DNA of 64,000 nucleotides, taken from contig CM059432.1 of the NCBI GenBank assembly GCA_030390025.1, forward strand, positions 67,892,001 through 67,956,000. Reading direction: 5' to 3'. This document shows, piece after piece, positions 1,364 to 62,147 of this stretch. A program made the position numbers and the translations under genes. This stretch comes from Squalus acanthias. Lineage: Eukaryota. The notes under the pieces are model-generated. The model searched no databases. It saw only the letters and a program-made list of their open reading frames with translations, and was not told the DNA's origin. Within the stretch, counting starts at the first letter, position 1. Each line of letters opens with the position of its first letter.

Positions 1364-2024
1364 GGTAGCATAGTGGTTATGTTACTGCACTAGTAATCCA
1401 GAGGCCTGGCCTAATAATCCGAAGACGTGAGTTCAAACTCCACCATGGCAGCTGGGGAATTTAAATTCAGTTAATGAAATAAATCTGGAATAAAAAGCTA
1501 GTATCAGTAATGGTGACCACAAAACTACCAGATTATCGTAAAAACCCATCTGGTTCACTAATGTCCTTTAGGAAAGAAAATCTGCTGCCCTTACCTGGTC
1601 TGGCCTATATGTAACTCCAAACCCACAGCAATGTGGTTGACTCTTGACTGCCCTCTAAAATGTCCGAGCAAGCCATTCAGTTGTAACAAACCACTACAAG
1701 AAACAATAATAAGAATAAAACCAGACGGATCGACCGGCTTCAGACACAACAACAGCACACGTGGCCCACTCGACCCTGCAAAATCCTCCTCACTTGCATT
1801 TGGGGACTTGTGCCAAAATTGTGAGAGCTGTCCCACAGACTAGTCAAGCAACAACCTGACATAGTCATACTCACAGAATCCTCCCTCTCTGCCAATCCAC
1901 AGTGGTGTATAGTCATCAACATGGCATCAGGTCAAACATGGGCAAGGAAACCTCCTGCTGATTACCATCTACCGCCCTCCCTCAGCTGATGAATCAGTAC
2001 TCCTCCATGTTCAACACCACTTGG
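1364..2024 (+). mobile_element. 5' part of a CR1-group LINE (second family) with a tRNA-like head, broken by CR1 insertions
   Basis: Starts GGTAGCATAGTGG...GAGTTCAAA (A/B-box-like). The 5' region and start of the endonuclease are colinear with the minus-strand copy at 54460-56216, and the GQGNLLLITxYRPPSADESVLLH segment is shared with 21850-24495. Confidence 0.7.
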
Positions 2025-2304
2025 AACATAAGGAACATAACAAGCAGGAGTAGGCCATTCGGCCCTTCAAGCCTGCTCCGCCATTCAATAAGATCATGGC
2101 TGATCTTCTACCTCAACTCCTCTTTCCTGCACTATCTCCATATCCCTTGATTCCCATAGTATCCAAAAATCTATCGACACCTTCCTTGAATATACTCAAC
2201 GACTGAGCATCCACAGCCCTCTGGGGTAGAGAATTCCAAAGATTCACAATCCATTGAGTGAAGAAATTTCTCCTCATCTCAGTCCTAAATGGCGCACCCC
2301 TTAT
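2025..2304 (-). mobile_element. CR1 LINE 3' fragment
   Basis: Minus ORF ...RRNFFTQWIVNLWNSLPQ...F...DRFL (CR1 ORF2 C-terminus) plus 3' UTR and CTTATGTT-type tail. Confidence 0.85.
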
Positions 2305-5300
2305 TAAGAACATAAGAAGTAGGAGCAGGAGTAGCCAACCGGCCCCTAGAGTCTACTCCGCCATTCAATAAGATCATGGCTGATCATCGACCTCAACTCC
2401 ACTTTCTCGCCCGATCTCCATATCCCTAGAGTCCAAAAATCTATCTATCTCAGCTTTGAATATACTCAAAGACTCAGCATTCACAGCCCTCTGGGGCAGA
2501 GAATTCCAAAGGTTCACAACCCTCTGAGTGAAGAAATTCCTCCTCATCTCAGTCTTAAATGGCCTACCCCTTATCCTGAGAGTATGCCCCCTAGTTCTAG
2601 ACACTCCAGCCAGGGGAAACAACCTCTCAGCATCTACACTGTCAATCCCCTTCAGAATCTTATATGTTTCAACATAAGAACATAAGAAATAGGAGCAGGA
2701 GTAGGCCAATCGGCCCTTCGAGCCTGCTCCGCCATTCAATAAGATCATGGCTGATCTGATCCTCACCTCAAATCTAAAGAACACAAGAAGTAGGAGCAGG
2801 ACCCGGCCACTCAGCCCCTGGGCCCGCTATGCCACCCACAGGGCCTCGACCGATCCGAACTCAGCCTCATGTCCAATTTCCTGCCCACTTCCCGTAACCC
2901 CTAATTCCCTTTACTTCTAGGAAACTGTCTATTTCTGTTTTAAATTTATTTAATGATGTAGCTTCCACAGCTTCCTGGGGCAGCAAATTCCACAGACCTA
3001 CTACCCTCTGAGTGAAGAAGTTTCTCCTCATCTCAGTTTTGAAAGAGCAGCCCCTTATTCTAAGTTTATGCCCCCTAGTTCTAGTTTCACCCATCCTTGG
3101 GAACATCCTTACCGCATCCACCCGATCAAGCCCCTTCACAATCTTACATGTTTCAATAAGATCGCCTCTCATTCTTCTGAACTCCAATGAGTAGAGTCCC
3201 AATCTACTCAACCTCTCCTCATATGTCCACCCCCTCATCCCGGGGATTAACCAAGTGAACCTTCTTTGTACTGCCTCGAGAGCAAGTATGTCTTTTCTTA
3301 AGTATGGACACCAAAAATGTATGCAGTATTCCAGATGCGGTCTCACCAATACCTTATATAACTGCAGCAATACCTCCCTGTTTTTATAATCTATCCCACT
3401 AGCAATAAAAGCCAACATTCCGTTGGCCTTCTTGATCACCTGCTGCACCTGCATACTAACTTTTTGATTTTCTTGCACTAGGACCCCCAGATCCCTTTGT
3501 ACTGCAGTACTTTCCAGTTTCTCGCCATTAAGATAATAACTTGCTCTCTGATTTTTCCTGCCAAAGTGCATAACCTCACATTTTCCAATATTGTATTGCA
3601 TCTGCCAAATCTCTGCCCACTCACCCAGCTTGTCTATATCCCCTTGTAGGTTTTTTATGTCCTCCTCACTTTCTACTTTCCTTCCCATCTTTGTATCATC
3701 TGCAAACTTTGATATGTTTCAATGAGATCACCTCTCATTCTTCTAAACTCCAGCGAGTATAGGCACAATCTCTCAAAATAGGACAGCCCTCTCATCCCAG
3801 AAATCAATCGAGTGAACATTTGTTGCACCACCTCCAAGGCAAGTATATCCTTCCTTAGATAAGGAGACCAGAACTGTTCACAGTACTCCAGGTGTGGTCT
3901 ACCAAGGCCCTGTACAATTGTAGCAAGACTTCCTTACTCTTATACTCCAACCCCCTTGCAATAAAGGCCAACATGCCATTTGCCTTCCTTATTGCTTGCT
4001 GTACTTTCATGCTAGCTTTCTGTGTTTCTTGCACAAGGGCACCCAAATCTCTCTGAATACCAACATTTGAAAGTTTCTCACCATTTAAAAAATATTCTGT
4101 TTTTCTATTCTTCCTACCAAAGTGAATAACCTCACACTTTCCTACATTATACTCCATCTGCCACCTTACTGCCCACTCACTTAGTCTATCTATATCCCTT
4201 TGCAGACTCTTTGTGTTCTCTTCACAGCTTACTGTCCCACCTAGCTTTGTATCATCAGCAAACTTGGATTCATTACACTCAGTCCCTTCATCTAGGTCAT
4301 TAATATAGATTGTAAATAACTGAGGCCCCAACACTGATTCTAGCAGCACCCAACTAGTTACAGCCTGCCAACCTGAAAAAGATCAGTTTATCCCTACTCT
4401 CTGTTTTCTGTCCATTAACCAATCCTCTATCCATGCTACGATATTACCCCCAACCCCATGAGCCCTAATCTTGTGTAATAACCTTTTATGTGGCACCTTA
4501 TCGAATGCCTTTTGGAAATCCAAATATATTATATCCACTGGTTCCCCTTTATCGACCCTGTTTGTTGCATCCTCAAAAAACTCTAATAAATTTGTCAAAC
4601 ACGATTTCCCTTTCATAAAACCATGTTGACTCTGCCGAATCATATTATGATTTTCTAAGTGACTTGATACCACTTCCTTAACAATGGATTCCAGCATTTT
4701 CCCGATGACTGATGTCAGGCTAACTGGCCTGTAGTTCCCTGTTTTTTCTCTCCCTCCTTTCTTGAATAGCGGTGTTATATTTGCGACCTTCCAATCCGCT
4801 GGGACCATTCCAGAATCTAGGGAATTTTGGAAGGTCAAAACCAATGCATCCACTATCTCTTCAGCCACCTCTTTCAGAACCCTAGGATGTAGGCCGTCAG
4901 GTCCAGGGGATTTGTCGGCTTTTAGTCCCATTAGTTTCTCTTGTATTTTTTCTCTACTTATATTAATTACGATAAGTTCCTCATCCTCATTAGACCCTTG
5001 GTTCCCCATCATTTTTGGTATGCTTTTTGTGTCTTCTACTGTGAAGACAGATACAATATATTTGTTTAACGTTTCTGCCATTTCCTTATCCAACATAATA
5101 ATTTCTCCTGTCTCAGCCTCTAAGGGACCAACGTTTACTTTTGCTGCTCTTTTCCTTTTTACATACTTGTAGAAACTCTTACAATCTGCTTTTATATTTC
5201 TTGCTAGTTTTCTCTCATATTCTATTTTTTCCCTTTTTATCATTTTTTTGGTCAACCTTTGCTGGTTTCTGAAACTCTCCCAATCCTCAGGCTTGCTATT

Positions 5301-6112
5301 ATTCTTTGCAACATTATAAGCTTCTTCTTTCAATCTAATGCTATCCTTAACTTCTTTAGTTAGCCACGATTGGATCACTTTTCCAGTGGAGTTTTTGTTT
5401 CTCAATGGAATGTATTTTTGTTGAGAATTATGAAATATTTCTTTAAATGCTAGCTACTGCTTATCTACCACCATACCTTTTAATCTATTTTCCAATCTAC
5501 CTTAGCCAACTCGCCCCTCATACCTCTGTAATTGCCTTTATTTAAGTTTTAAGACTTTAGTTTTGGACTTAGGCAAGTCACTCTCAAAATTAACGTGAAA
5601 TTCTAAAATATTATGATCACTCTGCCCCAGAGGATCTTTTACTATGAGATTGCTAATTAACCCTGTCTAATTACACAGTACAAGATCTAAAATAACCTGT
5701 TCCCTGGTTGGTTCCATGACATATTGTTCTAGGAAACTGTCCCGAATGCATTCCATGAACTCGTCCTCCAGACTGCCTTTGCCAAATTGATTTGTCCAGT
5801 CTATATGAAGATTAAAGTCCCCCAAGATTATTGCATTACCTTTGTTGCAAGCTCCAACTATTTCTTGATTAATAATCTGTCCAACAGTACAGCTACTGTT
5901 GGGGGCCTATATACTACTCTGTTTTCTGCCCCTTGTTATTCCTTATCTCCACCCATACTGATTCTACTTCCTGATCTTCTGAGCCGAGATCCTTTCTCGC
6001 GAATGTCCTTATGTCATCCTTTATTATCAGGGCTACTCCCCCTCCTTTTCCATTCTGCCTGTCTTTTTGAAACGTCAAGTACCCTGGAACATTTAGTTCC
6101 CAACCTTGCAAC
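2305..6112 (-). mobile_element. Long CR1 LINE (ORF2 endonuclease-RT, frameshifted), interrupted by a CR1 at 2673-3711 and by the LTR element at 6113; continues at 15440-15546
   Basis: ORFs 4383-5405 (KSPGPDG, NYRPVSLTS, QHGF, YLDFQKAFDKV), 3855-4349 (SVLGP..F.IYINDL, KFADDTK) and 5914-6112 (endonuclease GKGGGVAL). 3' tail at 2305. Confidence 0.9.
2673..3711 (-). mobile_element. 5'-truncated CR1 nested in the long CR1, with 11-bp flanking duplication
   Basis: ORF 2867-3688 is the CR1 RT C-terminal part; tail at 2673; ATATGTTTCAA occurs at both 2662-2672 and 3712-3722. Confidence 0.85.
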
Positions 6113-6689
6113 TGTAGAATTCGCAATATATCGCGATTTTATTAATAAGGAGAAAAACACAGAGTTTCGTTCAAACAGCTTTTATTCCAGCAGAATGCTG
6201 TCAGGTTTTCAAAGTGGACACAAGCAGCTTGTAAAATGGCCGCCGCACCTCGTGACAGAACATTCTAGACTTTTCGACAGGCAGACAAGATGGCGTTCCA
6301 ATAAACATTTGTGCAAGATCGATTAAGACTCAGCACATTTAAGATAATACACGAGACATCATGGGTTTACAGTATACACATAAATACTGAAATCGGTCTC
6401 CCAGGTGCGAATAAGAGCTATTGTACCAAGTAATCAAGAACCCATCCAAAGACATTAATATGTAAAATCCCAACGACTCTACGATGAGAGAGCCGTTAGC
6501 GGGTAGTTACAGAAAACACTTGGAAGCCCCAAAACTCCTCCAGGGAGAACACCGACCGATTAAACAATGGGAGAAATATTAACAGGTACTCAGACAGTTA
6601 CGAGTAGCCCCGAAACCCATTAAAACGAAGATCACCCTATACAAGACATTTGAGCGCCAAACCCTAACAAAAGAAAAGACATTAAGGTT

Positions 6690-6720
6690 GGGCGGGAAAC
6701 GGAAGATTTTGCACTATAAT
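6690..6720 (+). promoter_or_regulatory. Candidate LTR core promoter (GC box, ETS-like site, TATA-like box)
   Basis: GGGCGG 6690-6695, CGGAAG 6700-6705 and TATAAT 6715-6720, with a pyrimidine-rich initiator-like tract ~25 nt downstream. Motif inference only. Confidence 0.45.
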
Positions 6721-7491
6721 TGCAAGCTCCAAACCGTCCATCTCTCTCTTATTCTTGGCTCTTGACTCTTGACTCTTATCCTCGTGGCTGCCCTTGACTC
6801 GCCGTCTTGTTCCTGTTTGATGAACTGGGCTCTGAAGCCTTGAAGCGGGCGCACCATCCCGATAAGTCGGTAAACGGTGTTGGAACCGAAGGCCCGAGAT
6901 GAGATGAGATGAGATGAGATGAGATGAAAAGAGAAGAAGACCATACTTATCGCCACGGTCAGTAAGCTCCGACCGCGCCTGTAGGTCGAATAGACATTTT
7001 CCTTGCCAGGAAGACTTCTTCGAGTTTTACAGAACTGCCAGGAAGATTATTCTTCGAATTCTATCGCATCCGTGCGAGGGCACAGGAAGACTCTTTTTTG
7101 AGTAGAGTCGGAACTCCGAGGACAACACAGATCTTCATGACAGCAGACGTTCCAGCCTGCTAGCCGGAGCAGAAACGAGTAAACAAGTGGGGCCAGGAGA
7201 CCCCCTGATCGACACGTGGGCGCTGCGGTGAAAAACATCCGATCAGAGTTTTCGGAATTCTCCGAGTTATCACGAGTGGTGAGCATGAGTCTCGAATCCT
7301 ACGAATCTAGCTTAGGACAGATATTGATAGGGGAGGGTTTTAAGTATTAAGGATAATTGTAATGTGTGCCCCCATTTACGATGTGTCGTTCGTTCCTCGT
7401 TTCCCTGAAATTAATTACATAACTGCGTGTAAGATTGTACTGTCATTAATCTGTGCTTATGACATGTATTTCGTAATCTTAAATATTATGC

Positions 7492-7497
7492 AATAAA
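7492..7497 (+). promoter_or_regulatory. Candidate LTR polyadenylation signal (equivalent 15195-15200 in the 3' LTR)
   Basis: AATAAA downstream of the putative promoter in both LTRs, in an AT-rich context. Confidence 0.5.
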
Positions 7498-7741
7498 GAT
7501 TTTCCATTTCGTACCATTCAACCGAGTCTACCTGAGTTTCATCTCCATTACTGCTCTCGCATCTAAGTCCAGTGTCTAGAACCGTAAGGGCGAGTGGGTC
7601 GAACCACTCACAGGTGTGTCTAGTGCTCCCAGACTGGCTGGAGACCAGAACAGGCAACAAGGCCTAAACCCGCACTAGCACCCGGGCTGCACAGAGCCAC
7701 ACGAATCTCACAGGCTGAGAGACAAAAAACCCTTACAGAAA

Positions 7742-9549
7742 ATGGCGACCGCGGCAGGACACTGGCAGCGAGAGAATAATGTGTTCGACCCTGGTATGAA
7801 TGGGCGAAATGTCATGGAAGAGAGAATAGCAGATTATGTGTTCGGAAAAGTAAATTTGACTAAGAAATGGATAAGTGACCTGCTAGTGGATAAGTGTCCA
7901 CTAGAGGCAGCCGAGAGGTGGACAGATAGTAAGGAACATAAAAAGACAGTCGAGAAAGCAGTCTGGTTAATGTGTTATAAAAGGCAGGTCCAGATTTCAA
8001 ACCAGGTCATTACAGCGCAGGCAGCTCAGATCAAGAGTTTAGAGGTGGAAATGGACGAGAAGGTCGCGGGGGGGGGCAGCAGCTCATCACGACTTTAAAT
8101 GCGTTACATCAAGAACGCCAGTTAGTCACCAACCACCATGAAGCAAAAATAGATTACCTCGAGTGCCAGGTCACCGAGGCAAAGTTAAGTGAGGGTAGAT
8201 TAAAGGAACGATGTGCCCGCCTAGCTGCCCAAATAAAAGCCCAGGAAGAGAGCTTAACGGGGTTTAGGGCGGCATATAAGATGGCCCTCGAGGATAAATT
8301 TCAGGGGGCCGATCACAGCGTCTGCCAAAGAGAGATAGGGAACCTTAAAAATGCCTTGAACAAAGCGCACGGCATGGTGTGCCTTATCAGTCCGTCAGCA
8401 CACCAGCCGCTAGTAGATGAGGAGTTTCAGAAATCCCCACCGAACAAAGCAAAGGAAGTATTAGCCACTACGCCCTCCGCGCCACCCAGCTATTCGGCAA
8501 CCTGGGTGAGGGAGGAAGTAGTAGAAGAAACGAAAGAGCCCACTGAGGGAGAAGTGGAAAAGGGACCGTTGTGTCCGGTTACGGGTATCAAAAGAGGCCC
8601 GAACGGAGCGAATGCGGCAGAGGGGGATCTCCTCAACCAGCTTGTGTTGCCTCACAGCTCACACCAGCTGAGGGTTATGATCAGTCACGTACGGAAGCTG
8701 GCCGAGTCAGACGACCCTTCCGTACATTTCAGGGAAGTAGAGCAAACCGCAGCCATTAACGGCTGCGATGATGGGGAAAAAGCAAAAATGCTGTTATTCT
8801 CATTAGACAGCTCGATCCTTCAGTGTCTCTCAGACGAGAGCAAGAGGGGAATTAATACCTATGGGGAGCTAAGAGATGAGGTCCTAGAAGTGTTGGGAAT
8901 GGACGATGAAGGTCCGTTCGTTAGACTGGGACAAACAGTGCAGATGGAGGGAGAACCCCCGAAGGTTTTCGCCGACAGGCTGTGGCCAGTATATCAACGT
9001 AGCTGCCCAGGCGCACCAGCGCGTCACCGCCTAGACGGTGTCGGTTTAACTCATTGGCTCAGGTGTATAGTAGCCAACAGTTTGCCAGCCGTCAGGGAGC
9101 AGGCCAAAGCGTGGTTTGATCCCACTAACCCCGCCACAACAGAGGAGTCGGTCCTAAATCGACTCACGGTAGGGTACCGTAATACCAGGAGTATGGGAGC
9201 ACGTCCCCTTAAGGGAAAGGTGCATGAGGTACGACCCGCAGCCCCGGCTCAAAAGGAGTGGCATCAGGAGGGTAACCGCGCCCCGCAGGCCAGCAATGCT
9301 TGTTACGGGTGTGGGAAGACAGGGCACTGGCGCAAGAACTGCAGGAACCCTTGGAAGGATTCCAGGGATAGAAATCCCGCGGTCCGAGCCCAGGCGCCTG
9401 TCTCTGATAGGGGAGCTAGTGCACCCATCCATCCCGACGCGATCGAATCAGTGTTGGGAGCCATGCGCAACCTCATGAGTGCGCATGGAAGGGTGGCGGT
9501 TGCTACCGGCCCCGCAGGTGCCACAGCCCCGTCCAATAGTACCCAATGA
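7742..9549 (+). CDS. gag: Gag polyprotein (~602 aa if the frameshift in the G9 run at 8068-8076 is corrected)
   Basis: ORF 7742-8098 joins the frame that is open from 8077 to 9549. N-terminal coiled coil; PSAPPSY 8473-8493; MHR-like QMEGEPPKVFADRL 8941-8982; zinc knuckle CYGCGKTGHWRKNC 9301-9342. Confidence 0.85.
7743..7760 (+). other. Primer-binding site, tRNA-Arg (TCG type)
   Basis: TGGCGACCGCGGCAGGAC, 5 nt after the LTR end, is the reverse complement of ...GTCCTGCCGCGGTCG-CCA, which I recall as the 3' end of vertebrate tRNA-Arg(TCG). Confidence 0.85.
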
Positions 9550-10659
9550 CTAGAGCCCACGCAGCCTGCCTACCTGTGTCCTTTTAAAAGACACGCACAG
9601 GAGGGGCTCTCCGGTGAGGAGGCCAGGTTAAAAGAGCAGGCCTTGCGGGAGGAGAACGCCCGCTTAATAGGGAAAATAGATGGGCTGGAAGGGCAGCTTA
9701 GAGAGCAGGCCCTGCGGGAGGAGAACGCCCGCTTAATGGGAAAGTTAGACGTGCTCAGGCTAGAAGGGCAGCTTAGAGAGATAAAAGCAGCCTACAAGGG
9801 AGCCAGAAGCAGGGATTTAAACCAGTGCAAACTGTACAAGCCAGGTGCACAAGGGAAAACCACAGGGGCAAAACCTGCGAGTGGGGACTCGCAGCCCCAG
9901 GTAGGACCACAGGGCACACAGGCAGGCAGAGCAGCTTGCATCAGGGAAGGAGGCATCCTGGAAAATTGTGAAACATTTTTGTGGGGTTGGGAGTCAGATG
10001 AGGGAGAGTTCCGGGAACTCAAGTCAGATGAGGATAGTGAAGGTAGTGGAGAGTGGGTATCGGAGGACGCAAGGGTCGCCCCCGATTCAGGTATAGGGAG
10101 GACAGGGGCTGCAGATAGAGATCCACACAGGGTGGACACCGAGGCTGCAGGTCCCGAACACAGGAGGGAGGAGCTAGGGGAGGCGGAGTCAGCCACTGTG
10201 AGACCACAGGGCGTGACGGCGGAAACCTCAGAGCCCGAGCCGCCCGCCTTGAACGTCCTGCCCTCGAGGGAGGTAGGGATTGCGAGTGAAGGGCCGCCTG
10301 CTGGGCCGAGCAGGGCGGTGCCACAAGCTGCAAGTCCCGAGGTCAGGGAGGCGGAGTCAGGGGAGGCGGAGCCAGCGACTGTGGTGGGACCACAGGCCGT
10401 CCCGGTGGAAGTCTCGGAACCCGGTCCGTCGGTCCTGGGATTCCTGCCCCCGACAACTCCTCGTAGGTCAAGTCGAGCACCCCAGCCCAGGAAAATGTGG
10501 TCATGTCCCCAGACTGCCCCAAGGCGTAGGCTCAAGGTTAGGGCAGCCCAGGAAGGGCCCAGTCCCATCGCAGCAGCAACAGGCTACGGCAGATCAAAGG
10601 AAGGGGTCAGTGCCCTCCCACCGTCGGGAAGAGCTCGCAGCAGCCTTCTCAGAATTTAA
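9550..10659 (+). CDS. In-frame ORF after the gag stop (369 aa; coiled coil plus acidic/Pro-rich disordered region) occupying the pol position, with no PR/RT/IN motifs
   Basis: Open in the gag frame from the codon after TGA 9547-9549 to TAA 10657-10659. Contains a 69-bp tandem duplication from 9634 and a duplicated GEAE.ATV..PQ.V..E.SEP.P..L..LP segment. Confidence 0.6.
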   Translation, partial: LEPTQPAYLCPFKRHAQEGLSGEEARLKEQALREENARLIGKIDGLEGQLREQALREENARLMGKLDVLRLEGQLREIKAAYKGARSRDLNQCKLYKPGAQGKTTGAKPASGDSQPQVGPQGTQAGRAACIREGGILENCETFLWGWESDEGEFRELKSDEDSEGSGEWVSEDARVAPDSGIGRTGAADRDPHRVDTEAAGPEHRREELGEAESATVRPQGVTAETSEPEPPALNVLPSREVGIASEGPPAGPSRAVPQAASPEVREAESGEAEPATVVGPQAVPVEVSEPGPSVLGFLPPTTPRRSSRAPQPRKMWSCPQTAPRRRLKVRAAQEGPSPIAAATGYGRSKEGVSALPPSGRARSSLLRI

Positions 10660-10691
10660 AGGGGCCGCCCTGGGAACGGGCGGCGCTGTAC

Positions 10692-10844
10692 AGTAATAAG
10701 TTTAAGTTTAGGATAAGTTTCTAGGTTTATAGTTTAAGGTTAAGAATAAGTTTATAGTTTTAGAAAAGGTTATAAGTTTATAGTTTTAGATAAGGTTATA
10801 AGTTTATAGTTTTAAATAAGGTTAAGTTTGTAGTTTAATTTTAA
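10692..10844. repeat. AT-rich, almost C-free tandem repeat (26-bp period)
   Basis: ATAAGTTTATAGTTTTAGAWAAGGTT-like units start at 10746, 10772 and 10798; only one C in ~150 nt. Confidence 0.85.
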
Positions 10845-11017
10845 CAGAAAATGGCAAAATGATGGGAGCTTTAGAGATAGGTCTAGTTAAAGTTTATTTA
10901 GTGAACATTGAAGTTTACGTGAGGCGAGGTCAGGGGACCCGCTCACCCTTCACAAAAGCCAGAGACTCTTGCGAGGCTGGCTACCTCATTCTATCTGATC
11001 ACAGGAACCAAGGAAGG

Positions 11018-13369
11018 ATGGAACGAATTCTAGTATTGCTCGCGGCAATCGGATGTGGATTGGCCTATCGAGGCCGCACCAAGGATGTCGTGGTGTTTGG
11101 ATGCTCCGGGGACACGGCCCCCATCGCGGTGGATGGGACCGGAAGACGGGAGGCTGAGGAGACCACCACCTATTTCCACAAGGGAAGGTGGCCAGGATGG
11201 CTGGGAACAAACTCAACGGAGTATTCTAGCACATCGGGGTTTGCCTACCAAGAGACTTCTTTAATGTGCCCCAAAGTAAGGATCATCGCACCCAGGATCA
11301 GCGTCACCGTCGGCAAACGGATTTGTTTGACTTGTAATGGGAATGTCCCATTGAGCCGATGGTGGTGGCTGCGAAAGCTGAGCAAAAACATGAGGAACTC
11401 TTCGGTCGAGTGGGAACGACTGGGTAATAATACCCATCGGACAATTACGGGGACAAACGGACAAGTGAGAGTCTGTTGGGACAAATGGTGGGAACCGGAT
11501 GAGGGAATTTATGTATGCATGTGGGGGTCAAAGTACGCTTGCCCCAAAGGCATCTCCATATTTTTCATTAATCAATGGCAGGATAACGGACAGGGGATGA
11601 GGTGGGATGCGAGCACCAGGGGGTGCGGAGCCCCATACTCTTCGATCCCGGTAAATGCCACTGAGCTCATTACGCGCCCACGCAAAGCCCCGCCCACGAT
11701 TCCGGTGGTTCTAGCTAAAGAGGAAGGGTGCCCTAAAACTAGTAAGGGACCCGGGAATGGTTTGGTACTGGTCCCCACAGACCAGATACTATTTCAGGGG
11801 GTACATTACGCGGTGGCCTCGGTGATTTTAAATCTCACCGAGGTGCGGTTACCAGAGTGGTGCCCCAAAAAGACGGAACAGTTATATCAGGTCCTGTTGA
11901 CCAAGATGTTCAGACAATTTTACGAATTCGATTTTGCGGAAATTGATAAAACAAGTTTGTACACCGCACCACATGAAGTTTCTGATCAGGTGGGGAGGCA
12001 AAGAAGGGGTGTAGTGAACGACGCGTTCACTGCTTTTAACACGGGTACATCTGTGGTCAACGCTCTAGACAGCGTGGAGCTGCAGACCCAGATTAATGGT
12101 TTAAAGACGCAATTAAAAGACATTCTAACAGATGAAAATAAAGTGGTTGGGTCGGGTTTACACGAGGACCAAGCAATAACTCTCCATTTAAAGGAAATTA
12201 TAGCAGAGTTAGAGAAACATGCAAAGACGGTAAATGCCCTGATTAGGGAAGATCGGAATGCATCCGATCAAGCTGCGCAGAATGAGGTGTGCGTGCTTTA
12301 CGGGGCGTGGTTACTGGGCGAGGGCCGCAGTAATTTGGAGGATTTAAAACAAGGTTTGGTCCCGTCCTGGATAAGTAACAAACACCTGCGGGCGCTCCAC
12401 CCTTTTCAGAACGCATTAAGCCCGTGCCAGCTCAGGCTAGCTTCAGAAGCATACCCAGTCCCCGTGGACTGCGGACGATCAAACCATACTATCATGGGTA
12501 TAGTATTACGTATGCCGGTTTTGGGCGACACAGCAAAGCCCGCCCCGGTGTATCGGGTAGAGAACATTGGTGTCATTCAGGGGGGAGCCCACATTCGCTA
12601 TGCAGCGGTTCCACCCTACGTCATCCGCTGGGAGCAAACGATGACAGGTACAGATCTCTCTGGTTGTCGTGGCAGGGGAGCACACATAATACTGTGACCC
12701 CAGCACTTGAATGCCTTTTTAACACCACAGTGCGGGTTCAGAACGGCTGGCGCCAAGTCCATGAATTGCACCATGGAGGCAATGGCACAAGATCATGTGC
12801 CTCCGCAGGTAGCATACATCGGGGGTGGAACATATTGTGTTACCACTGCAGCGCAACACTACCAGCATGGAAACCGTAGCCGGTGTCCGGTGAGTGACAG
12901 CAGTTTCTGTTTCAAACCCAGGGCGGAAGTTCAAGTAGCACAACAGCGAATTGTCCCAATCCCTGAACCATCCACGGTTCATCTCACCGTAAAAGAGAAT
13001 TTCACCGACTTGCAGCGATTCGTCGCGCATTTCGGATACCTCATTCCCCCTCTCCCTGAACACCTCACCAAGCTTTTGAAAGCCGTCGCGGTGTCACAGA
13101 AACATTTTTACACACTCGAGCAGAAAACTGTCGAAATAGGGACAGACATTCTGGATATAGTAATTCCACCGTGGTGGAATCTGTTCACCAATATTGAAGT
13201 ACCTTCATGGATCAGAATAGCCTCCCACATTTTAGTCGTATGCCAAGTTTTTATTGTAGTGTACCTATTGGTCGTACATTGTAAGAGAGGCAAACGCCTC
13301 ACCAAGCATGAAAACACGGGAGAGTGGCGAGAACGTTATGTGCACGTGCACAACGAAAGCACCGTGTAA
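11018..13369 (+). CDS. env: Envelope glycoprotein, class I F-like fusion protein with N-terminal Ig-like domain (783 codons; one in-frame TGA at 12695-12697)
   Basis: Signal peptide MERILVLLAAIGCGLA; Ig motifs; furin site RQRR 11996-12007 followed by a fusion-peptide-like segment and heptad repeat; Cys-rich F1-like core; many N-x-S/T sequons; TM segment ~13210-13280; short tail. ORFs 10859-12697 and 12707-13369 are in the same frame. Confidence 0.88.
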
Positions 13370-13806
13370 TCGGAAAATGGCGTCACTCCCGCTTGCCACG
13401 TGCGCCGCGGAAGTTTGTACTCGATCATGATTTTCAAAGACTGTAAATACGTTTGGAACTCGACATGTTTTAAGAGTTGGTGTTGATTATTTTGGTGATG
13501 GTGTTGTAGTTAAAAATGATTGTTTGGTTTTGGTTTTGTTTTCCTTTCCCTAAATAAAAAGATGAATATACAGGTGATATGAAAGGCATCGGCCTGGTTA
13601 CGCCGGGAAGGAAAACAAGTGGTGTAAGTTTAAAGGCAAATGATGCCTACGGTGATATAAAGTGTAATTTTCTTGGGAAATAAGGACGACGCAAAGACCC
13701 TAGATAGTTTAAGTTATGGGTTTAAATTTTCTGGATTCGGAGAAAATCGAGATAATATTGCTCACCACTATTTTTTGATACGATAAGCGGAGTTATTCGC
13801 ATCAAC

Positions 13807-13814
13807 AAGAGGGA
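13807..13814 (+). other. Short polypurine tract
   Basis: AAGAGGGA immediately upstream (1-nt gap) of the 3' LTR start TGTAG at 13816. Confidence 0.6.
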
Positions 13815-13815
13815 C

Positions 13816-15439
13816 TGTAGAATTCGCAATATATCGCGATTTTATTAATAAGGAGAAAAACACAGAGTTTCGTTCAAACAGCTTTTATTCCAGCAGAATG
13901 CTGTCAGGTTTTCAAAGTGGACACAAGCAGCTTGTAAAATGGCCGCCGCACCTCGTGACAGAACATTCTAGACTTTTCGACAGGCAGACAAGATGGCGTA
14001 CCAATAAACATTTGTGCAAGATCGATTAAGACTCAGCACATTTAAGATAATACACGAGACATCATGGGTTTACAGTATACACATAAATACTGAAATCGGT
14101 CTCCCAGGTGCGAATAAGAGCTATTGTACCAAGTAATCAAGAACCCATCCAAAGACATTAATATGTAAAATCCCAACGACTCTACGATGAGAGAGCCGTT
14201 AGCGGGTAGTTACAGAAAACACTTGGAAGCCCCAAAACCCCTCCAGGGAGAACACCGACCGATTAAACAATGGGAGAAATATTAACAGGTACTCAGACAG
14301 TTACGAGTAGCCCCGAAACCCATTAAAACGAAGATCACCCTATACAAGACATTTGAGCGCCAAACCCTAACAAAAGAAAAGACATTAAGGTTGGGCGGGA
14401 AACGGAAGATTTTGCACTATAATTGCAAGCTCCAAACCGTCCATCTCTCTCTTATTCTTGGCTCTTGACTCTTGACTCTTATCCTCGTGGCTGCCCTTGA
14501 CTCGCCGTCTTGTTCCTGTTTGATGAACTGGGCTCTGAAGCCTTGAAGCGGGCGCACCATCCCGATAAGTCGGTAAACGGTGTTGGAACCGAAGGCCCGA
14601 GATGAGATGAGATGAGATGAGATGAGATGAAAAGAGAAGAAGACCATACTTATCGCCACGGTCAGTAAGCTCCGACCGCGCCTGTAGGTCGAATAGACAT
14701 TTTCCTTGCCAGGAAGACTTCTTCGAGTTTTACAGAACTGCCAGGAAGATTATTCTTCGAATTCTATCGCATCCGTGCGAGGGCACAGGAAGACTCTTTT
14801 TTGAGTAGAGTCGGAACTCCGAGGACAACACAGATCTTCATGACAGCAGACGTTCCAGCCTGCTAGCCGGAGCAGAAACGAGTAAACAAGTGGGGCCAGG
14901 AGACCCCCTGATCGACACGTGGGCGCTGCGGTGAAAAACATCCGATCAGAGTTTTCGGAATTCTCCGAGTTATCACGAGTGGTGAGCATGAGTCTCGAAT
15001 CCTACGAATCTAGCTTAGGACAGATATTGATAGGGGAGGGTTTTAAGTATTAAGGATAATTGTAATGTGTGCCCCCATTTACGATGTGTCGTTCGTTCCT
15101 CGTTTCCCTGAAATTAATTACATAACTGCGTGTAAGATTGTACTGTCATTAATCTGTGCTTATGACATGTATTTCGTAATCTTAAATATTATGCAATAAA
15201 GATTTTCCATTTCGTACCATTCAACCGAGTCTACCTGAGTTTCATCTCCATTACTGCTCTCGCATCTAAGTCCAGTGTCTAGAACCGTAAGGGCGAGTGG
15301 GTCGAACCACTCACAGGTGTGTCTAGTGCTCCCAGACTGGCTGGAGACCAGAACAGGCAACAAGGCCTAAACCCGCACTAGCACCCGGGCTGCACAGAGC
15401 CACACGAATCTCACAGGCTGAGAGACAAAAACCCTTACA
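13816..15439 (+). repeat. 3' LTR (1624 bp)
   Basis: Direct repeat of 6113-7737; ends CCCTTACA, followed by TSD CAAC. Confidence 0.97.
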
Positions 15440-15546
15440 CAACCATGTCTCTGTAATGGCTATTAGATCAAACCCATTTATCTCTATTTGTGCCACTAGT
15501 TCGTCTATCTTGTTACGAATGCTTCGTGCATTTAGATAAAGTTCTG
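15440..15546 (-). mobile_element. Continuation of the interrupted CR1 (endonuclease N-terminus)
   Basis: Minus translation LYLNARSIRNKIDELVAQIEINGFDLIAITETWL joins QGWELNVPGY on the other side of the LTR element. Confidence 0.9.
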
Positions 15547-16967
15547 AGACTGAGCCCGTGAGACTCTCCAGCCAAGGGAAACATCCTCCCTGCATCTACC
15601 CTGTCAAGCCCTGTAAGAATTTTGAATGTTTCAATGAGATCACCTCTCATTCTTCGAAACTCTAGAGAATATAGGCCTAGTCTACTCAATCTCTCCTCAT
15701 GGGACAATTCCCCCATCCCAGGAATCAGTCTGGTGAACCTTTGTTGCACTCTCTCTATGGCAATTATATCCTTCCTTAGGTAAGGAGACCAAAACTGTAC
15801 ACAATGCTGCAGGTGTCATCTCACCAAGGCCCTATATAATTGCAGTAAGATGTCTTTACTCTTATACTCAAAACTTTTTGTAATAAAGGCCAACATACCA
15901 TTTGCTTTCCTAATTGCTTGCTGTACCTGCATATTAACTTTCAGCGATTCATGTACAAGGACACCCAGCTCCCTCTGAACACCAACATTTCCCAATCTCT
16001 CACCATTTAAAAAATACTCTGATTTTCTATTTTTTCTACCAAAGTGGATAACTTCACATTTCTCCACATTATATTGCTATTGCCATGTTCTTGCTCACTC
16101 GCTTAACCTGTCTATATCCCCTTGCAGCCTCTTTACATTCTCCTCACAACTTACATTCCCACCTAGCTTTGTATCTTCAGCAAACTTGGATATATTACAT
16201 TTGGTCCCCTCATCTACATCATTGATATAGATTGTAAATAGCTGAGGCCCAAGCACTGATCCTTGTGGTACCCCACTCGTTGCAGCCTGCCAACCCGAAA
16301 ATATTCCTACTCTCTGTTTTCTGTCTGTTAATCAATCTTCAATCCATGTTAATACATTACCCCCAATTCCATGAGCCCTAATTTTGTTTAATAACCTCTT
16401 GTGTGGCACCTTATCGAATGCCTTCTGAAAATCCAAATACACCACATCCACTGGCTCCCCCTTATCTATCCTGCTAGTTACAACCTTAAAAAACTCTAAC
16501 AGAGTTGTCAAACATGATTTCCCTTTCATAAATCCGTGTCGACTCTGCCCAATCCTATTATTACTTTCTAAGTGCCCTGTTACCATGTCCTTTATAATAG
16601 ATTCTAGCATTTTCCCTACTACTGACGTTAGGCTATCTGGTCTATAGTTCCCCGTTTTCTCTCTCCCTCTCTTAAATAGTGGGATTACATTTGCTACCTC
16701 CCAATCCGCGGGAACCGTTCCAGAATCTATGGAATTTTGGAAGATGACAACCAATGCATCCATTATCTCTATAGCCAACTCTTTTAAAACCCTAGGATGT
16801 AGACCATCACATCCAGGGGATTTATCGCCTTTCAGTCTCATTAATTTCTCCAGTACTATTTCCTTACTAGTACTAATTTCTTTCAGTTCCTCATTCTCAC
16901 TAGACCCTCGGTTCTCTACTATTTCCAGAATATTTTTTACGTCTTCTGCCGTGAAGACAGACACAAT
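15547..16967 (-). mobile_element. CR1 LINE RT fragment
   Basis: ORFs 16332-16964, 15816-16067 and 15513-15749 carry CR1 RT motifs. Confidence 0.9.
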
Positions 16968-16969
16968 TT

Positions 16970-17183
16970 GGGCTGGATTTTTACCAGCCCTAAGGAGGTG
17001 GGTTTCGAGGCAGGACTACTGGGAAAATGGGAAAAATTGGGAGCGGGTCCCAACCCCGCTCCCAACCCGCCTCCGAACTATCTTCCCGGGAGGCAGAGGA
17101 CCCAATTAACTGCCTGTTATCAGGTAGTTAACAGGCAGTTAAGTGGCTTTTCACCATTTTACGCCTGCTGAAGCGGGCTTCCC
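16970..17183. mobile_element. Terminal fragment of the Harbinger-type MITE family
   Basis: Begins GGGCTGGATTTTTACCAGCCC; colinear with 214-450. Confidence 0.65.
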
Positions 17184-17688
17184 TTGGAGGCGGTGCAACG
17201 AAGGTTCACTAGATTGATTCCTGGGGTGAGAGGGCTGTCCTCTGATGATAGATTGTGTAGAATGGGCCTATACTGTCTGGAGTTTAGAATAATGAGAGCT
17301 GTTCTCATTGAAACATACAAGATTCTGAAGGAGATTGACAGGGTAGTTGCTGAGAGGTTATTTCCCCTGGCTGGAGTGTCTAGAACTAGGGGGCATAGTC
17401 TCAGGATAAGGGGTAGGCCATTTAAGACTGAGATGAGGAGGAATTTCTTCATTCAGAGGGTTGTGAATCTTTGGAATTCCCTGTCCCAGAGGGCTGTGCA
17501 AGCTGAGTCTTTGAGTATATTCAAGGATGAGATAGATACATTTTTGAACTCTAGGGGAATCAAGGGATATGGAGATCGAGCGGGAAAGTGGAGTTGAGGT
17601 CGATGATCAGCCATGATCTTATTGAATGGTGGACCAGGCTCGAGGGGCCGTATGGCCTACTCCTGCTCCTATTTCTTATGTTCTTATG
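17184..17688 (+). mobile_element. CR1 LINE 3' fragment
   Basis: ORF 17184-17597 is the CR1 C-terminus; tail CTTATGTTCTTATG. Confidence 0.9.
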
Positions 17689-17689
17689 A

Positions 17690-20610
17690 TAGTGTCCTTA
17701 CAGGAGATGGGTTTGGAAGAAGTATACTTGTGAGAGTCAGTGGGCTTGTATAGATGTCAGTAGAAAGCCCAGCACCAGAGATAGAACAAAGTCCTTCAAG
17801 GGAAGGGAAGGGTCAGAGCTAGACCATGTAAAGGTGAAGAATGGATGGAAATTGGAAGTATAGCTAATGAAATTCTCGACATCAGAATGAGAGCAGGAAG
17901 CGGCACCAACATAATCAATAGAGGAAGAGGTCGGGGGGTAGTGGGGGAATGCCTTAATAGGATTGGAACAAAGAATTTTCCACGTATCCTACAAAAAGAG
18001 CATATCTTGGGCTCATGTGGGTTTCCATAGCAAAACCTTTTATCTGAGGGAAATGAATGGCGTTAAAAGATAAGTTGCTCATGATGAGAACAAGTTCAGC
18101 TAGGAAAAGGAGGATGGTGGTGGACAGGGACTGGTTGGTCCACTGCTGAAGGAAGTTGACAAATTTTGTCTGTCCTGCTAAGAGAGACTGAATATCCATG
18201 TTAATGAGGAGATAATTGGGGCTGGACAATCTGAGATTGTTAAAGTGGCAGAAAGCATCAGAAATGTTATGGATATAGATGGATAGGAACTGAATAAAGC
18301 AGTAATGATTGAGCCTAGACAAAAGAAATTTAGATTGGTGGAACAGGAATAGGCTAAAATAATCAATCTGCTGGGACAGTCCTATTTGTGTTTCCTAGGA
18401 TGGAGCTATAAATGAGCTGTACGGTGCTGGGGAACAATTGGACTTGAGGTTGTTGCAGAAAAATAACTGGACGAAGTGAGATTAGTAACAATCTGGAAAA
18501 TTATGCTTGGGGTTCAATAGTAGGATTGTGGTCTCGAGGGAGATACGGAGTCATCATAAAATTAACACTCAGCCTTAGACAGGTAGAGGTTCGGCTGAAA
18601 TACAACAACAGCACTTCATTTTCAGCGGGTTTAATGATGATGTCAGGGTTGAAGCTGAGATAGCAGAGAGGAACAAGTTCAGAATGGGGGGGTAGAAAAA
18701 ATGAGACAGCTGATATCACAGCCGCAGTTCTCAATGAAAATGTCAAGGGACCAAAGGGTGTAAGGATAAACCCAGCAACTACAGGCCAGTCAGTTTAACC
18801 TCGGTAGTGGGGAAGCTTTTAGAAACGATAATCAGGGACAAAGTTAACAGTCATTTGGACAAGTGTGGATTAATTAAGGAAATCCAGCATGGATTTGTTA
18901 AAGGCAAATCGTGTTTAACTACCTTGATTGAGTTTTTTGATGAGGTAACAGAGAGGGTTGATGAGGGCAATACGGTTGATGTAGTGTATATGGATTTTCA
19001 AAAGGCATTATAAAGTGCCACATAATAGGCTTGCCAGCAAAGTTGAAGCCCATGAAGTAAAAGGGACAGTGGCAGCATGGATATGAAATTGGCTAAGTGA
19101 CAGGAAACAGAGAGTAGTGGTGAACGGTTGTTTTTCGGACTGGATGAAGGTATGCAGTGGTGTTCCCCAGGGATCGGTACTAGGACCACTGCTTTACTTG
19201 ATATATATTAATGACTTGTACTTGGGAGTACAGGATACAATTTCAAAATTTGCAGATGACACAAAACTTGGAAGTATAGTGAACAGTGAGGAGGATAGTG
19301 ATAGACTTCAAGAAGACAGACAGGCTAGTGAAATGGGCAGACACATTGCAGATGAAATTTAAAGCAGAAAAGTGCGAAGTGATACATTTTGGTAGGAAGA
19401 ATGAGGAGAGGCAATATAAACTAAAGGGTACAATCCTAAAGGAGGCGCAAGAACAGAGAGACCTGGGGGTACATGTGCGCAAATCATTGAAGGTGGCAGG
19501 GCAGGCTGAGAAAGCGGTTAAAAAAGCATACGGGATACTGGGCTTCATAAATAGAGGCATAGAGTACAAAAGCAAGGAAGTTATGATGAAACTTTATAAA
19601 ACACTGGTTCGGTCTCAACTGGAGTATTGTGTCCAATTCTGGGCACCACACTTTAGGAGGGATGTGAAGGCCTTAGAGAGGGTGCAGAAAAGATTTATGA
19701 GAATGATTCCAGGGATGAGGGACTGCAGTTGCGTGGATAGATTAGAGAAGCTGGAGCAGAGAAGGTTGAGAGGAGATTTGATAGAGATATTCAAAATCAT
19801 GAGGGGTCTAGACAGAGTAGATAGAGAGAAACTGTTCCCATTGGTGGAAGGGTCGAGAACTAGAGGACACAGATTTAAAGTGATTGGCAAAAGAACCAAA
19901 GGCGACATGAGGGAAATCTTTTTTATGCAGCGAGTGGTTAGGATCTGGAATGCACTGCCTGAAAGGGTGGTGGAGGCAGACTCAATCGTGGCTTTCAAAA
20001 GGGAATTGGATAAGTATCTGAAGGAAAAAAATTCGCAGGGCTATGGGGAAAGGGTAGGGGAGTGGGACTAGCTGAAGTGCTCTTGCAGAGAGCCGGCACG
20101 GGCTCGACGGGCCGAATGGCCTCCTTCTGTGCTGTAACCATTCTATGATTCTAGGTGAGACAGGAGACAGAAGAAGGGGTCGAATTACGGAGAGAGGGGA
20201 CCAAAAAAGAAGTCCTGGAAGTAGAGGTAATAGAAGATGGGCTTAGCATCATGTCGAATTCCAAAAACGTTCAAGTGGGGACATAAGATGAAGAAACTCA
20301 AGCCTTTGCTCAGGACAGATTATTCAGGGTCAGAAAGGGACCGTCAGAGGGATGGTGGAAATCCAGCAAGAAATAAGATTAGGGGGTGGAACAGCATCCA
20401 AACTGTGCATGAACTTCTGGTTCTTAACATTTGCAAGGAAGAAAATGCAGACAGCATCGGCTCAATCTTTACAGTAGCTATCCTGGTCCTCAATTCCACA
20501 ACATCCTTCATCTCATTTACTTTAATAAAGAAAACTTTTCTTCTCCTTCTCTCCATGTGGGGGAGCACCTGAGCAATAATAATCATTCAATCATCAGATT
20601 TCAGTTGGTT
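17690..20610 (-). mobile_element. Degenerate Penelope-like element RT remnant, split by the CR1 at 18760-20153
   Basis: Minus-strand MDIQSL, QIKGFAMETHMSPRYALFVGYVE and DIIIKPA resemble the Penelope RT motifs MDV.SLY, Q..GVAMGT.MGP.YA.LF and IKPADKG. Boundaries approximate. Confidence 0.55.
18760..20153 (+). mobile_element. 5'-truncated CR1 LINE (ATTCTATG-tail subfamily)
   Basis: QHGF, YMDFQKA, GVPQGSVLGP, KFADDTK, ORF 19286-20071; tail TTCTATGATTCTA. Confidence 0.92.
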
Positions 20611-48080: not shown

Positions 48081-48225
48081 CTAGCACACACACACAAACA
48101 TACTCCTACTGTCCTCCTCCTTCCTTCCCGCAGGTCCTCTCTGCCTGGGTTTCATAGGCTGCAGTGTGGTCCTCCCGACCCCGCTGCTGGTCCACGCTGC
48201 GCCACTCCTGGGCGTCGACCTCGCT

Positions 48226-48766
48226 GCTGGGCTCGTCCTCGCCCCTGGGCCTCGTCCTCGCCCCTGGGCCTCGTCCTCGCTCCTGGGTCCCGACCTCGCT
48301 CCTGGGTCCCGACCTCGCTCCTGGGTCCCAACCTCGCGCCTGGGCCCCGTCCTCACCCCTGGGCCCCGTCCTCGCCCCTGGGTCCCGACTTCGCTCCTGG
48401 GCCTCGTCCTCGCTCCTGGGCCTCGACCTCGCTCCTGAGCCCCGTCCTCGCCCCTGGGCCTCGTCCTCGCCCCGGGTCCCGTCCTCGCTCCTGGGTCCCG
48501 ACCTCGCTCCTGGGCCTTGACCTCGCTCCTGGGCCTCGACCTCGCTCCTGAGCCCCGTCCTCGCCCCTGGGCCTCGTCCTCGCCCCGGGTCCCGTCCTCG
48601 CTCCTGGGTCCCGACCTCGCTCCTGGGCCTTGACCTCGCTCCTGGGCCTCGACCTCGCTCCTGAGCCCCGTCCTCGTCCCTGGGCCTCGTCCTCGCCCCG
48701 GGTCCCGTCCTTGCTCCTGGGTCCCGACCTCGCTCCTGGGCCTCAACCTCGCTCCTGGGTCCCGAC
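48226..48766. repeat. GC-rich 19-bp minisatellite (CTGGGTCCCGACCTCGCTC variants) with a 113-bp higher-order repeat
   Basis: About 28 units; the diagnostic CTGAGCCCC variant recurs at 48435, 48548 and 48661. Confidence 0.95.
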
Positions 48767-50017
48767 AGGCTGTCTAAGCAGCCAATCAAAACACAGAATT
48801 CGCACAGACAGCGAACAAGGAAGTGAGTAAGCTCTTAAAATTCTAACATTTTAAACATGTTAGAGAGAGCAAAACAAATATTGGAGCTCTCACATGGGGA
48901 AAAGGGAAACCCTAAATAAAGATGAACAAACTTTTTTTTTTTTAAATAATTTTTGAAAAACATTTTTAAAAATTTTTTATTTTTATTAAAATGGATAAAT
49001 TTGACACTGCACAAAACTAAAAATGAGTTTTTCAGGGCCAGAACCTTTGTTTAGCAGTCAATACACTGTTAAAACTCCAGTTACACCTAATCACATTAGG
49101 ACTAACTTTTAGTGGGGAATTTAACAGAGTAATTACTGCAGAAGAGCTGAAGTTTTCATCAGTTTTCCTGATTTGAGAGATTACACTGATTGCCGGCTCT
49201 GTGACGGGGGTCGGGGGGCGGGGGGGGGAGGGGGGCAGCGGTGTGGGTGGGCACAGCGCAGCCAGTGTCGGAGCAGTGAATGACAGACTGCAATTTCAGA
49301 ATTTCCGCATGCACTTGCACATGCGCCAAATCCCGAAGTTGTGGTCAGTTTCAAAGCCGGAATGACGGCGAACGCTACCAGTTCGCTGTCATCCGGACTG
49401 CAAATTCTGGGCCAATGTAAAATATCTTTAATAGTATGCATCAAAGTAAAATATGTTCTGATGTTATTTTGATTTTTTTGAAATTAAGTCATACATCATA
49501 ACTGGTAAATATGCCACATTTAAATGTAATATATAATGAGCATAGTAGGTATGTTACCAATGCAAAAATGTAATTATTTTAATTTACATTTGTTTCTTAG
49601 GTATGTCAAGAAGCTATGGTATGTTATACCTTGCTAAACATTTATGTTCATGTTCCTTCATACCAGGCAAGGGGGAATTTATTAAAATCCATGTGAATTT
49701 ATTGTGCTGTTATGCTCACATATCAACAATTTTTGTTAATGCCTTTCATTCAAAGGCAGCTGATGTGTCAGTAACAACTGCCCTCATTTTATATTCTGAT
49801 ACTTTTGCTTAACGCAGGTTTTGTTCATTCAAGGTTAGGGGCCTCTGGAAGCATTTCTCAGAATACACCGTATCGATGAGCTACTGATCTAGAGCACAAA
49901 TTTAGGCAGAAAAATCAAACCAATATCAAACAAAAGATAAATGATGACTACCTAAAAAGAAAGAATTGCCTTTCACGACTTCAGGACCTCTGGAAATGTT
50001 TTACAGCCAATGAATTA

Positions 50018-60193: not shown

Positions 60194-60252
60194 CACTAAG
60201 TTTAAGCCTCAGTGATATGCTTTTACATTTAAGCTATTTATGATATTAAAAA

Positions 60253-61828: not shown

Positions 61829-62147
61829 TGAGTGATAGTTTTATTATTCCAGGAAAAGTTTGCATGCTCTGTGTCATAAGCACCTTTTTATTCTGCTTTA
61901 TTGAAGGGTCCTTCCTAAAGAGAGAACCTATTAGTTGAAAGTGGAAATACTTCTAAAAAAGGGATGGAGCTGCCATGTTGTAGAATTACATCTGGAGTTC
62001 CTGTTGAAAATTATTTTGATTCATGAATTTGTATAGGCTGCCTCCTATACATACTTCAGACTATAAGTAACCACTGCTGAAATAATGTACCAGTGAAGAA
62101 TGAAATATGATTTAAATTCAAGATGAATCCTGGAGTGTTTTGTTTTT

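Follow-up and report, generated by a model that had tools for sequence, protein, structure and literature searches.

The pol-deleted provirus

The window, a 64,000-nt stretch of Squalus acanthias contig CM059432.1 that is numbered here from its first letter, carries a 9.3-kb provirus in which pol is deleted, gag is frameshifted and env is interrupted by a stop codon. The features outside env are listed below.

6109..6112, + strand: left copy of a 4-bp target-site duplication, identical to the bases at 15440-15443
6113..7737, + strand: 5' LTR (TG...CA) of 1,625 bp, 99.8% identical to the 3' LTR
7742..9549, + strand: gag, with a coiled coil, a presumably capsid-like middle part and one CCHC knuckle (zf-CCHC, E=0.0027)
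7743..7760, + strand: primer-binding site (PBS) for tRNA-Arg(TCG), complementary to the 3' end of host tRNA-Arg(tcg) genes in 3 of 3 loci scanned
9550..10659, + strand: what is left of pol, following the gag stop in the same frame; residues 90-369 correspond to Pol 1217-1495 of a sister copy (89% identity)
13804..13815, + strand: purine-rich tract (PPT) ahead of the 3' LTR, with a purine-rich 8-mer conserved in sister copies
13816..15439, + strand: 3' LTR, from the LTR comparison

At the two substitution rates of 2.2e-9 and 2.2e-10 per site per year taken from PMC4422223, the 2 substitutions and 1 single-base indel that separate the two LTRs translate into an insertion age of roughly 0.3-2.8 million years. 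Target-site duplications of 4 bp were found in 6 of the 7 elements for which both ends were read, while 3 more were unreadable. The frameshift in gag lies near position 8075 and is absent from all 7 sister copies compared. The 369 aa of the pol remnant comprise the first ~16 codons, a coiled-coil filler of ~75 aa and an acidic tail from the C-terminus, with no PR, RT, RH or IN left. Because of the gag frameshift and the env stop, the window copy is most likely inert now.

Several smaller features accompany this layout. The filler (9582-9817) contains an internal repeat of ~90 bp and stands in frame in place of PR-RT-RH-IN; a search for its source found none. The tail is ~280 aa long, acidic and proline-rich (9818-10659), lies behind the integrase in a sister copy (L050:4785-5622) and is retained in pol-less copies. 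The probable gag start codon overlaps the PBS (7742-7760), with almost no leader behind the LTR. The PBS matches the best site of the SnRV record at 13 of 18 positions, and was dropped as a link to that virus since the match is too loose. Ahead of env the sequence is AT-rich and made up of short imperfect repeats (10690-10850); its length differs between copies, and a candidate splice acceptor is located near 11004. No env splice joint was seen in three contig sets that cover 30 of 30 element bins and are not on record as RNA, and no RNA data set was listed among the sequencing runs searched.

Anatomy of the Env protein

The env reading frame extends from an ATG at 11018 to 13369 (783 codons), with a single in-frame stop at codon 560 (12695-12697) that was treated as X in the analyses. 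The original prediction had placed the start at 11750, which omits the first ~244 residues, including the signal peptide and an N-terminal arm of ~220 aa. The parts of the frame are as follows.

11018..11068, + strand: predicted signal peptide (hydrophobic aa 3-16, mean 2.21)
11279..11572, + strand: Ig-like domain of the N-terminal arm, a likely receptor-binding head (Pfam Ig_3 E=0.01, sub-threshold)
11729..11995, + strand: long beta strands and a helix that make up an F2-like portion of the fusion core (pLDDT 85-93 at aa 241-300)
11996..12007, + strand: RQRR furin-type cleavage site, from sequence
12008..12073, + strand: putative fusion peptide, from its position behind the cleavage site (low pLDDT)
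12074..12349, + strand: HRA-like long helix or heptad region (helices predicted up to aa 444)
12446..12952, + strand: domains I/II-like region, beta-rich and Cys-rich, with the in-frame stop at 12695-12697 (foamy Env profile alignment)
13058..13150, + strand: HRB-like membrane-proximal helix (predicted at 681-711)
13217..13369, + strand: TM anchor and short cytoplasmic tail up to the stop (hydropathy)

Env has a hydrophobic N-terminus, one TM (aa ~734-755, mean hydropathy 2.36), 22 cysteines and 11 N-glycosylation sequons. All elements that the prediction had read from the letters, namely RQRR (aa 327-330), a post-cleavage part of ~450 aa (453 aa here), a Cys-rich block, a TM and the quoted motifs, were located in this frame. 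Helices are predicted at aa 331-375, 383-444 and 681-711, and beta-rich blocks lie at ~493-552. The predicted fusion segment is present and starts with G directly behind the cleavage site, but it is mildly hydrophobic (0.7 across aa 331-350). Similarly, the long heptad repeat is borne out by the helices up to aa 444 but its a/d pattern is modest, the best registers being 0.56-0.59 hydrophobic.

A pattern scan of the 783-codon frame upheld the claim that the CX6CC motif is absent; as a control, the same pattern matched 18 ORFs of Env size from viral loci of the gamma/delta type, and 4 other ORFs, in a set of 238. The single CXXC (103-106) lies inside the Ig-like region. A search of 1.84 billion proteins yielded 49 Env homologs at E<=0.001, the close ones from Rhinoraja, Pristiophorus and Scyliorhinus and the more distant ones from other sharks and from frogs. 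Ten core cysteines are conserved in 81-100% of the aligned homologs covering each position, and C470 in merely 9 of 19. Given these homologs and conserved cysteines, the anatomy read from the sequence is not due to chance.

Predicted fold of Env

An AlphaFold model of Env was inferred from a 36-row alignment (mean pLDDT 60.6, pTM 0.45). It is confident at residues ~241-310 and 411-650 and poor across 10-233, and the pLDDT is mostly 70-95 in the beta-rich core (245-650). In a Foldseek search against PDB, paramyxovirus or pneumovirus F accounted for 37 of the 37 matches listed, with F of hPIV3, Langya, RSV and NDV at the top. The best of these was hPIV3 F (E 1.1e-10, TM 0.47 by target, rmsd 25.5). 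The alignments to F begin at aa 238-245 and span ~245-650 across the cleavage site, and in the predicted structure the F-like domains I-III are built from both subunits.

Using VIA-align against 48,161 chains, the best 16 rows were F or foamy Env proteins (Z 10.7-5.4) and the first unrelated chain had a Z of 5.2; values of 7-10 exceed the tool's background of 7-8 modestly, and a note to the tool warns of high chance scores for helical proteins. The matches included NDV F (Z 10.7, 379 aligned, rmsd 18.1), measles F (9coh; Z 8.9, 282 aligned, rmsd 9.7) and foamy Env (Z 8.5 and 8.4, rmsd 7.9 and 6.0). Overall the model superposes poorly (TM 0.28 by query, rmsd 6-33 A); the large rmsd probably reflects a monomer model that is intermediate between the pre- and post-fusion shapes.

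Searches of predicted structures in BFVD gave F-type proteins of lispiviruses, a fish filovirus, baculoviruses and paramyxoviruses, and also the Env of WEHV-1 (Q9WHI8, E 4.2e-9) and feline foamy Env, while a PF00523 cluster (47% of members) and a Baculo_F cluster were found at 0.94 in the Atlas. As a single sequence, Env matched neither Fusion_gly nor Baculo_F in Pfam, and phmmer found no match in PDB. A gamma-type TLV_coat match, which the prediction had named as the outcome that would speak against it, did not appear in Pfam, Foldseek PDB, BFVD or VIA-align.

Could the F match be an artefact of long helices and a TM in a weak model? The low global TM-scores and the proneness of helical proteins to high chance scores are what such an artefact would produce, but the aligned range takes in the well-modelled beta-rich core, and independent sequence-profile and language-model results concur. 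With searches of four independent kinds speaking against it, we regard this as extremely improbable. The fold matches support the predicted class I F-type protein, a putative fusogen, on a vertebrate LTR element. We estimate a probability of about 80% that Env is, as modelled, an F-type (class Ib) fusion protein encoded by a young endogenous retrovirus and broken by a stop in the window copy.

As a kind, F-type Env is already known from published accounts of lokiretroviruses, foamy viruses and errantiviruses, and since it has been published for the first two of these, its presence on a vertebrate LTR element is less surprising. The lokiretrovirus Env is described as F-type in PMC7947760 (Wang and Han), with a signal peptide, an RXKR-type site, a fusion peptide, a coiled coil and a TM, as here. 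Foamy Env is a class Ib, F-type fusogen according to PMC11468914 (Fernandez et al.; PDB 8RM0, 8RM1 and 8OZH), and its fusion core is likewise built from both subunits. The F-type Env of errantiviruses is covered by bioRxiv 10.1101/2023.10.26.564294. The paramyxo- and pneumovirus F proteins (PF00523), those of baculoviruses (PF12259) and the errantivirus Env resemble the protein studied here in predicted fold and domain order, but identities are 9-16% and no Pfam match reaches the threshold.

Env homologs among retroviruses

Reference genomes of retroviruses were taken from IMG/VR, with labels assigned as follows. Those that we take to be foamy and delta viruses each form a tight clade. The locus taken as SnRV (L073) was recognised from the RT start printed in the supplement of PMC7947760 and from the 10,688-nt length given in PMC12193657, and the WDSV (L107) and MuLV (L098) labels follow the RT starts printed in the same supplement.

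The Env profile was searched against the 238 ORFs of 48 viral loci. Sixteen foamy-type Envs, the SnRV Env (one record, present twice) and a WDSV-type Env were ranked at E values of 3.8e-7 to 0.2, and the gamma and delta Envs below them at 0.73 or worse. In a shuffle control with 200 shuffles each, the best scores were 2.3 and 5.4 bits as compared to 16.7 and 17.3 bits for the real sequences. With hhalign, the Env profile matched SnRV Env over 333 columns (probability 95.9%, E 6e-9); a second run gave 94.7% for SnRV, 94.6% for the WDSV-type Env (E 7e-8) and 43% for foamy Env, and one gamma and one delta Env had probabilities of 1.2% and 0.3%. In PDB, the best profile match was foamy Env (E=3.4e-4), residues 675-839 of which aligned to the block at 12446..12952. 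The profile also matched a HERV-K-derived chain across the membrane-proximal and TM region (E 6e-4), probably as an effect of composition.

BLASTP of Env against SnRV Env was insignificant (E 0.09), and a scan of viral contigs with the single protein found no relative. Since the single-sequence Pfam and PDB searches and BLASTP were uninformative, these relatives of Env are reached by profiles and folds alone. Taken together, the matches are evidence that the F-type Env reaches into SnRV and the walleye viruses. Accordingly, the contrast that the prediction had drawn with orthoretroviral envelopes holds against gamma- and delta-type Env but not in general, since the Envs of SnRV and the walleye epsilonretroviruses match the profile and both are classed in Orthoretrovirinae in PMC12193657.

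The walleye Envs (WDSV, WEHV-1) differ in their length of 1,229-1,317 aa, and their RTs form a separate, supported clade. The walleye ORF carrying the match is L107:5962-9648, and walleye Env is called 'distinct' and lacking gamma-type hallmarks in PMC9967133. In the SnRV Env ORF (1,134 aa), both the N-terminal part and the tail are far longer, and accessory ORFs occur in SnRV. In the literature searched, the Envs of SnRV and the walleye viruses were nowhere called F-type and the present Env family was undescribed, although recent work may do so.

The N-terminal arm

The arm of ~220 aa precedes the F core and contains an Ig-like stretch at aa 88-185. Pfam Ig_3 matches are below the cut-off in 4 family members (E 0.003-0.02), the window Env (E=0.01) being one of them. 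Clusters of Ig domains in the Atlas (0.83-0.84) provide a lead only, and the model of the arm, with a pLDDT of 34, matches mostly Ig folds at Z<=5.1. The PDB matches obtained from one alignment of the arm were discounted because of a zinc-finger sequence from a fused gene model. On balance, aa 88-185 probably form an Ig domain. No Ig match to Pfam was obtained for the N-terminus of SnRV Env.

The four Loki Envs printed in the supplement of PMC7947760 start, behind the signal peptide and as aligned by eye, at a block corresponding to about residue 244 here, that is at the F core, and the arm is thus an addition relative to these four. Residues 217-543 of foamy Env, its binding domain, are inserted between the two subunits (PMC11468914), whereas the extra module is N-terminal here, as in the coronavirus spike described in the same text. 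From its position and the modular scheme in PMC11468914, the arm may by analogy serve in receptor binding.

Placement by reverse transcriptase and integrase

The Pol of a sister copy contains PR, RT, a tether, a second RNase H and IN, with matches to both RT_RNaseH and RNase_H, and its nearest named relatives are frog proteins annotated as 'NYNRIN-like' (44-45%). From 157 RT hits we inferred trees of 50, 25, 29 and 33 rows, leaving out redundant loci of the gamma, delta and foamy groups and the majority of the Gypsy hits; the trees are without ERV-L, ERV4 and CmiERV-I references. For lokiretroviruses we used 4-5 database proteins, labelled by RT motifs that they share with published Loki sequences; the motifs were matched by pattern in 4 of 5.

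Identity of the family RT with that of SnRV is 43%; the values for other groups are 36-38% (epsilon), 35-38% (most gamma), 32-37% (foamy) and 33-35% (Loki). The family RT falls within the canonical retroviruses (support 100/98), outside the Loki clade in three RT trees and in a polytomy with SnRV. The foamy RTs form a 100/100 clade that excludes it, which removes membership in Spumaretrovirinae. The element has a CCHC knuckle in Gag and pol in frame behind gag, and we know of no foamy virus with either. The Gypsy rows are set apart (100/99); this separation and the retroviral dual RNase H dispose of an identity as Errantivirus (Ty3/Gypsy). In an AU test, a grouping of the family with Loki was rejected (p 0.003), while groupings with SnRV (p 0.23) and foamy viruses (p 0.24) were not. 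The integrase groups with Loki and Gypsy (97/93), not inside Loki, and outside its own group is closest to the Loki-motif proteins (41-42%). On these sequence comparisons, the RT marks the family as a deep canonical retrovirus, and its integrase looks Loki/CGIN1-like.

The element was initially read as a lokiretrovirus, the first from cartilaginous fish. It shares with that group, as depicted in PMC7947760, a vertebrate LTR element with an F-type Env and dual RNase H, the integrase leans towards the CGIN1/NYNRIN-like type of Loki, and the F core parallels, by eye, the Loki Env blocks in the supplement; the tether and second RNase H are common to all retroviruses. That reading was dropped on the RT, which is without Loki motifs, resembles SnRV in its motifs and is placed elsewhere by the trees and the AU test. 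The Loki Envs compared are also without the 220-aa arm, and Loki has been reported from 0 of 6 chondrichthyan genomes. It is thus largely refuted by RT sequence, and we consider it quite unlikely.

A closer contender, to which we give slightly less than even odds, is that the family belongs with the SnRV-like viruses (clade Huo, CmiERV lineage I) and that the ordinary, unrecognised envelope of this clade is F-type and bears an Ig-like head. In RT identity SnRV ranks first of the named references, its Env core is homologous and it shares the in-frame gag-stop-pol layout; moreover, SnRV-related endogenous retroviruses of this clade are described in PMC12193657, PMC6001957 and PMC4422223, the last for the elephant shark. 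However, none of the trees unites the two with support, the foamy grouping is equally unrejected, the integrases do not cluster together and the SnRV N-terminus gave no Ig match. Adopting this classification changes the filing of the family and leaves the mechanism the same as for a deep canonical lineage of its own.

Copies of the family and selection on env

A first look with a 691-bp env probe gave 2,356 candidates in the 3.7-Gb genome, 40 of which were scored and found to be 99-100% identical, the window copy included. Twenty copies were retrieved as 10-kb stretches: a pol insert of ~3.6 kb is present in 13, pol is missing from 5, and the other 2 are partial or rearranged. The 5 pol-less copies, and in addition L070, have the same junction as the window copy, and the pol-less form is hence a subfamily that spread. 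The family is young and abundant, and the window locus is one non-autonomous, pol-deleted copy of it. The genome also contains tandem copies sharing an LTR and nested or inverted self-insertions of the family (L063-L064, L069-L070), as well as a more distant subfamily with 70% identical Env (L071-L072).

A further 38 env copies were compared. Full length is reached by 36 of them, and env is unbroken in 18 of these 36, a fraction that is inflated since the copies were picked as best matches. The stop at codon 560 is absent from all 38. To quantify selection, we calculated pairwise pN/pS values for 37 copies, which are non-independent and gave 0.11 for env, 0.17 for the arm, 0.10 for the F2-like part and 0.09 for the F1-like part. 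Variants shared among copies were strongly synonymous (99 synonymous, 26 nonsynonymous) as compared to private ones (112 and 79; Fisher p=1.5e-4), which argues from sequence that env is under purifying selection during copying and suggests spread through particles, for example by germ-line reinfection.

Alternatively, the family could spread as an intracellular retrotransposon, with Env as a passenger or serving the host rather than virus entry. The very high copy number, the presence of pol-less and env-broken copies and the recurrence of three stop positions in copies on different contigs are in keeping with this. Yet the recurrent stops may be mutation hot spots, env is unbroken in 4 of 6 pol-less copies (window copy counted) and the shared variants are strongly synonymous, making such a mode of spread rather unlikely.

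A proposed mechanism and its implications

For the preferred reading, an F-type fusogen on a retrovirus that spread through particles, we propose that cleavage of the intact precursor at RQRR would yield an N-subunit, made up of signal peptide, Ig-like arm and F2-like strands, and a C-subunit of 453 aa comprising the fusion peptide, HRA, beta domains, HRB and TM. Both subunits would remain associated as a trimer. Binding by the arm would then let HRA refold into a coiled coil and the fusion peptide insert, and HRB would zip as in paramyxovirus F and foamy Env. Cleavage, trimer formation, fusion and the receptor role of the arm are all inferred. The pol-less subfamily, including the window copy, may have been mobilised by the Pol of pol-bearing sister copies, and the window copy would have lost gag and env function since.

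What is added to the known F-type envelopes is likely a young and abundant lineage, neither Loki nor foamy, with an extra N-terminal arm. If the Ig-like head on F is real, attachment and fusion would be combined in one protein. More tentatively, and with the odds somewhat against it, the F-type fusogen could be the ancestral retroviral envelope, kept in Loki, foamy viruses, the shark-and-frog lineage, SnRV and the walleye viruses, with the SU-TM of gamma- and betaretroviruses as a later replacement and the Ig-like head added here; the family may still move in sharks and rays. From the dissimilarity of their Envs, PMC9040795 argues that Loki and canonical retroviruses each acquired Env on their own. 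This argument is weakened by an F-type Env on an element with a canonical RT and by the homology to SnRV and walleye Envs, and an ancestral F-type envelope becomes testable. A structural class is thereby offered for two unclassified fish-retrovirus Envs. SnRV is a laboratory virus and requires Env for its spread, according to PMC12193657, so the structure of SnRV Env could be solved. For all these questions, the single window locus is relevant merely as a sample of its family.

Other repeats in the window and the genome

Elsewhere in the window, there is a tandem repeat with a 19-bp period at 48224-48804. Dispersed fragments of one repeat type, presumably CR1-like LINEs, occur at 2000-5500, 15500-17700 and 60200-61900. 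The pattern for tRNA-Arg(TCG) has 424 matches genome-wide, and tandem arrays that match it with a period of ~1.6 kb (L122-L124; G000:C26, about 39-42 Mb) contain tRNA-Ser in the loci scanned.
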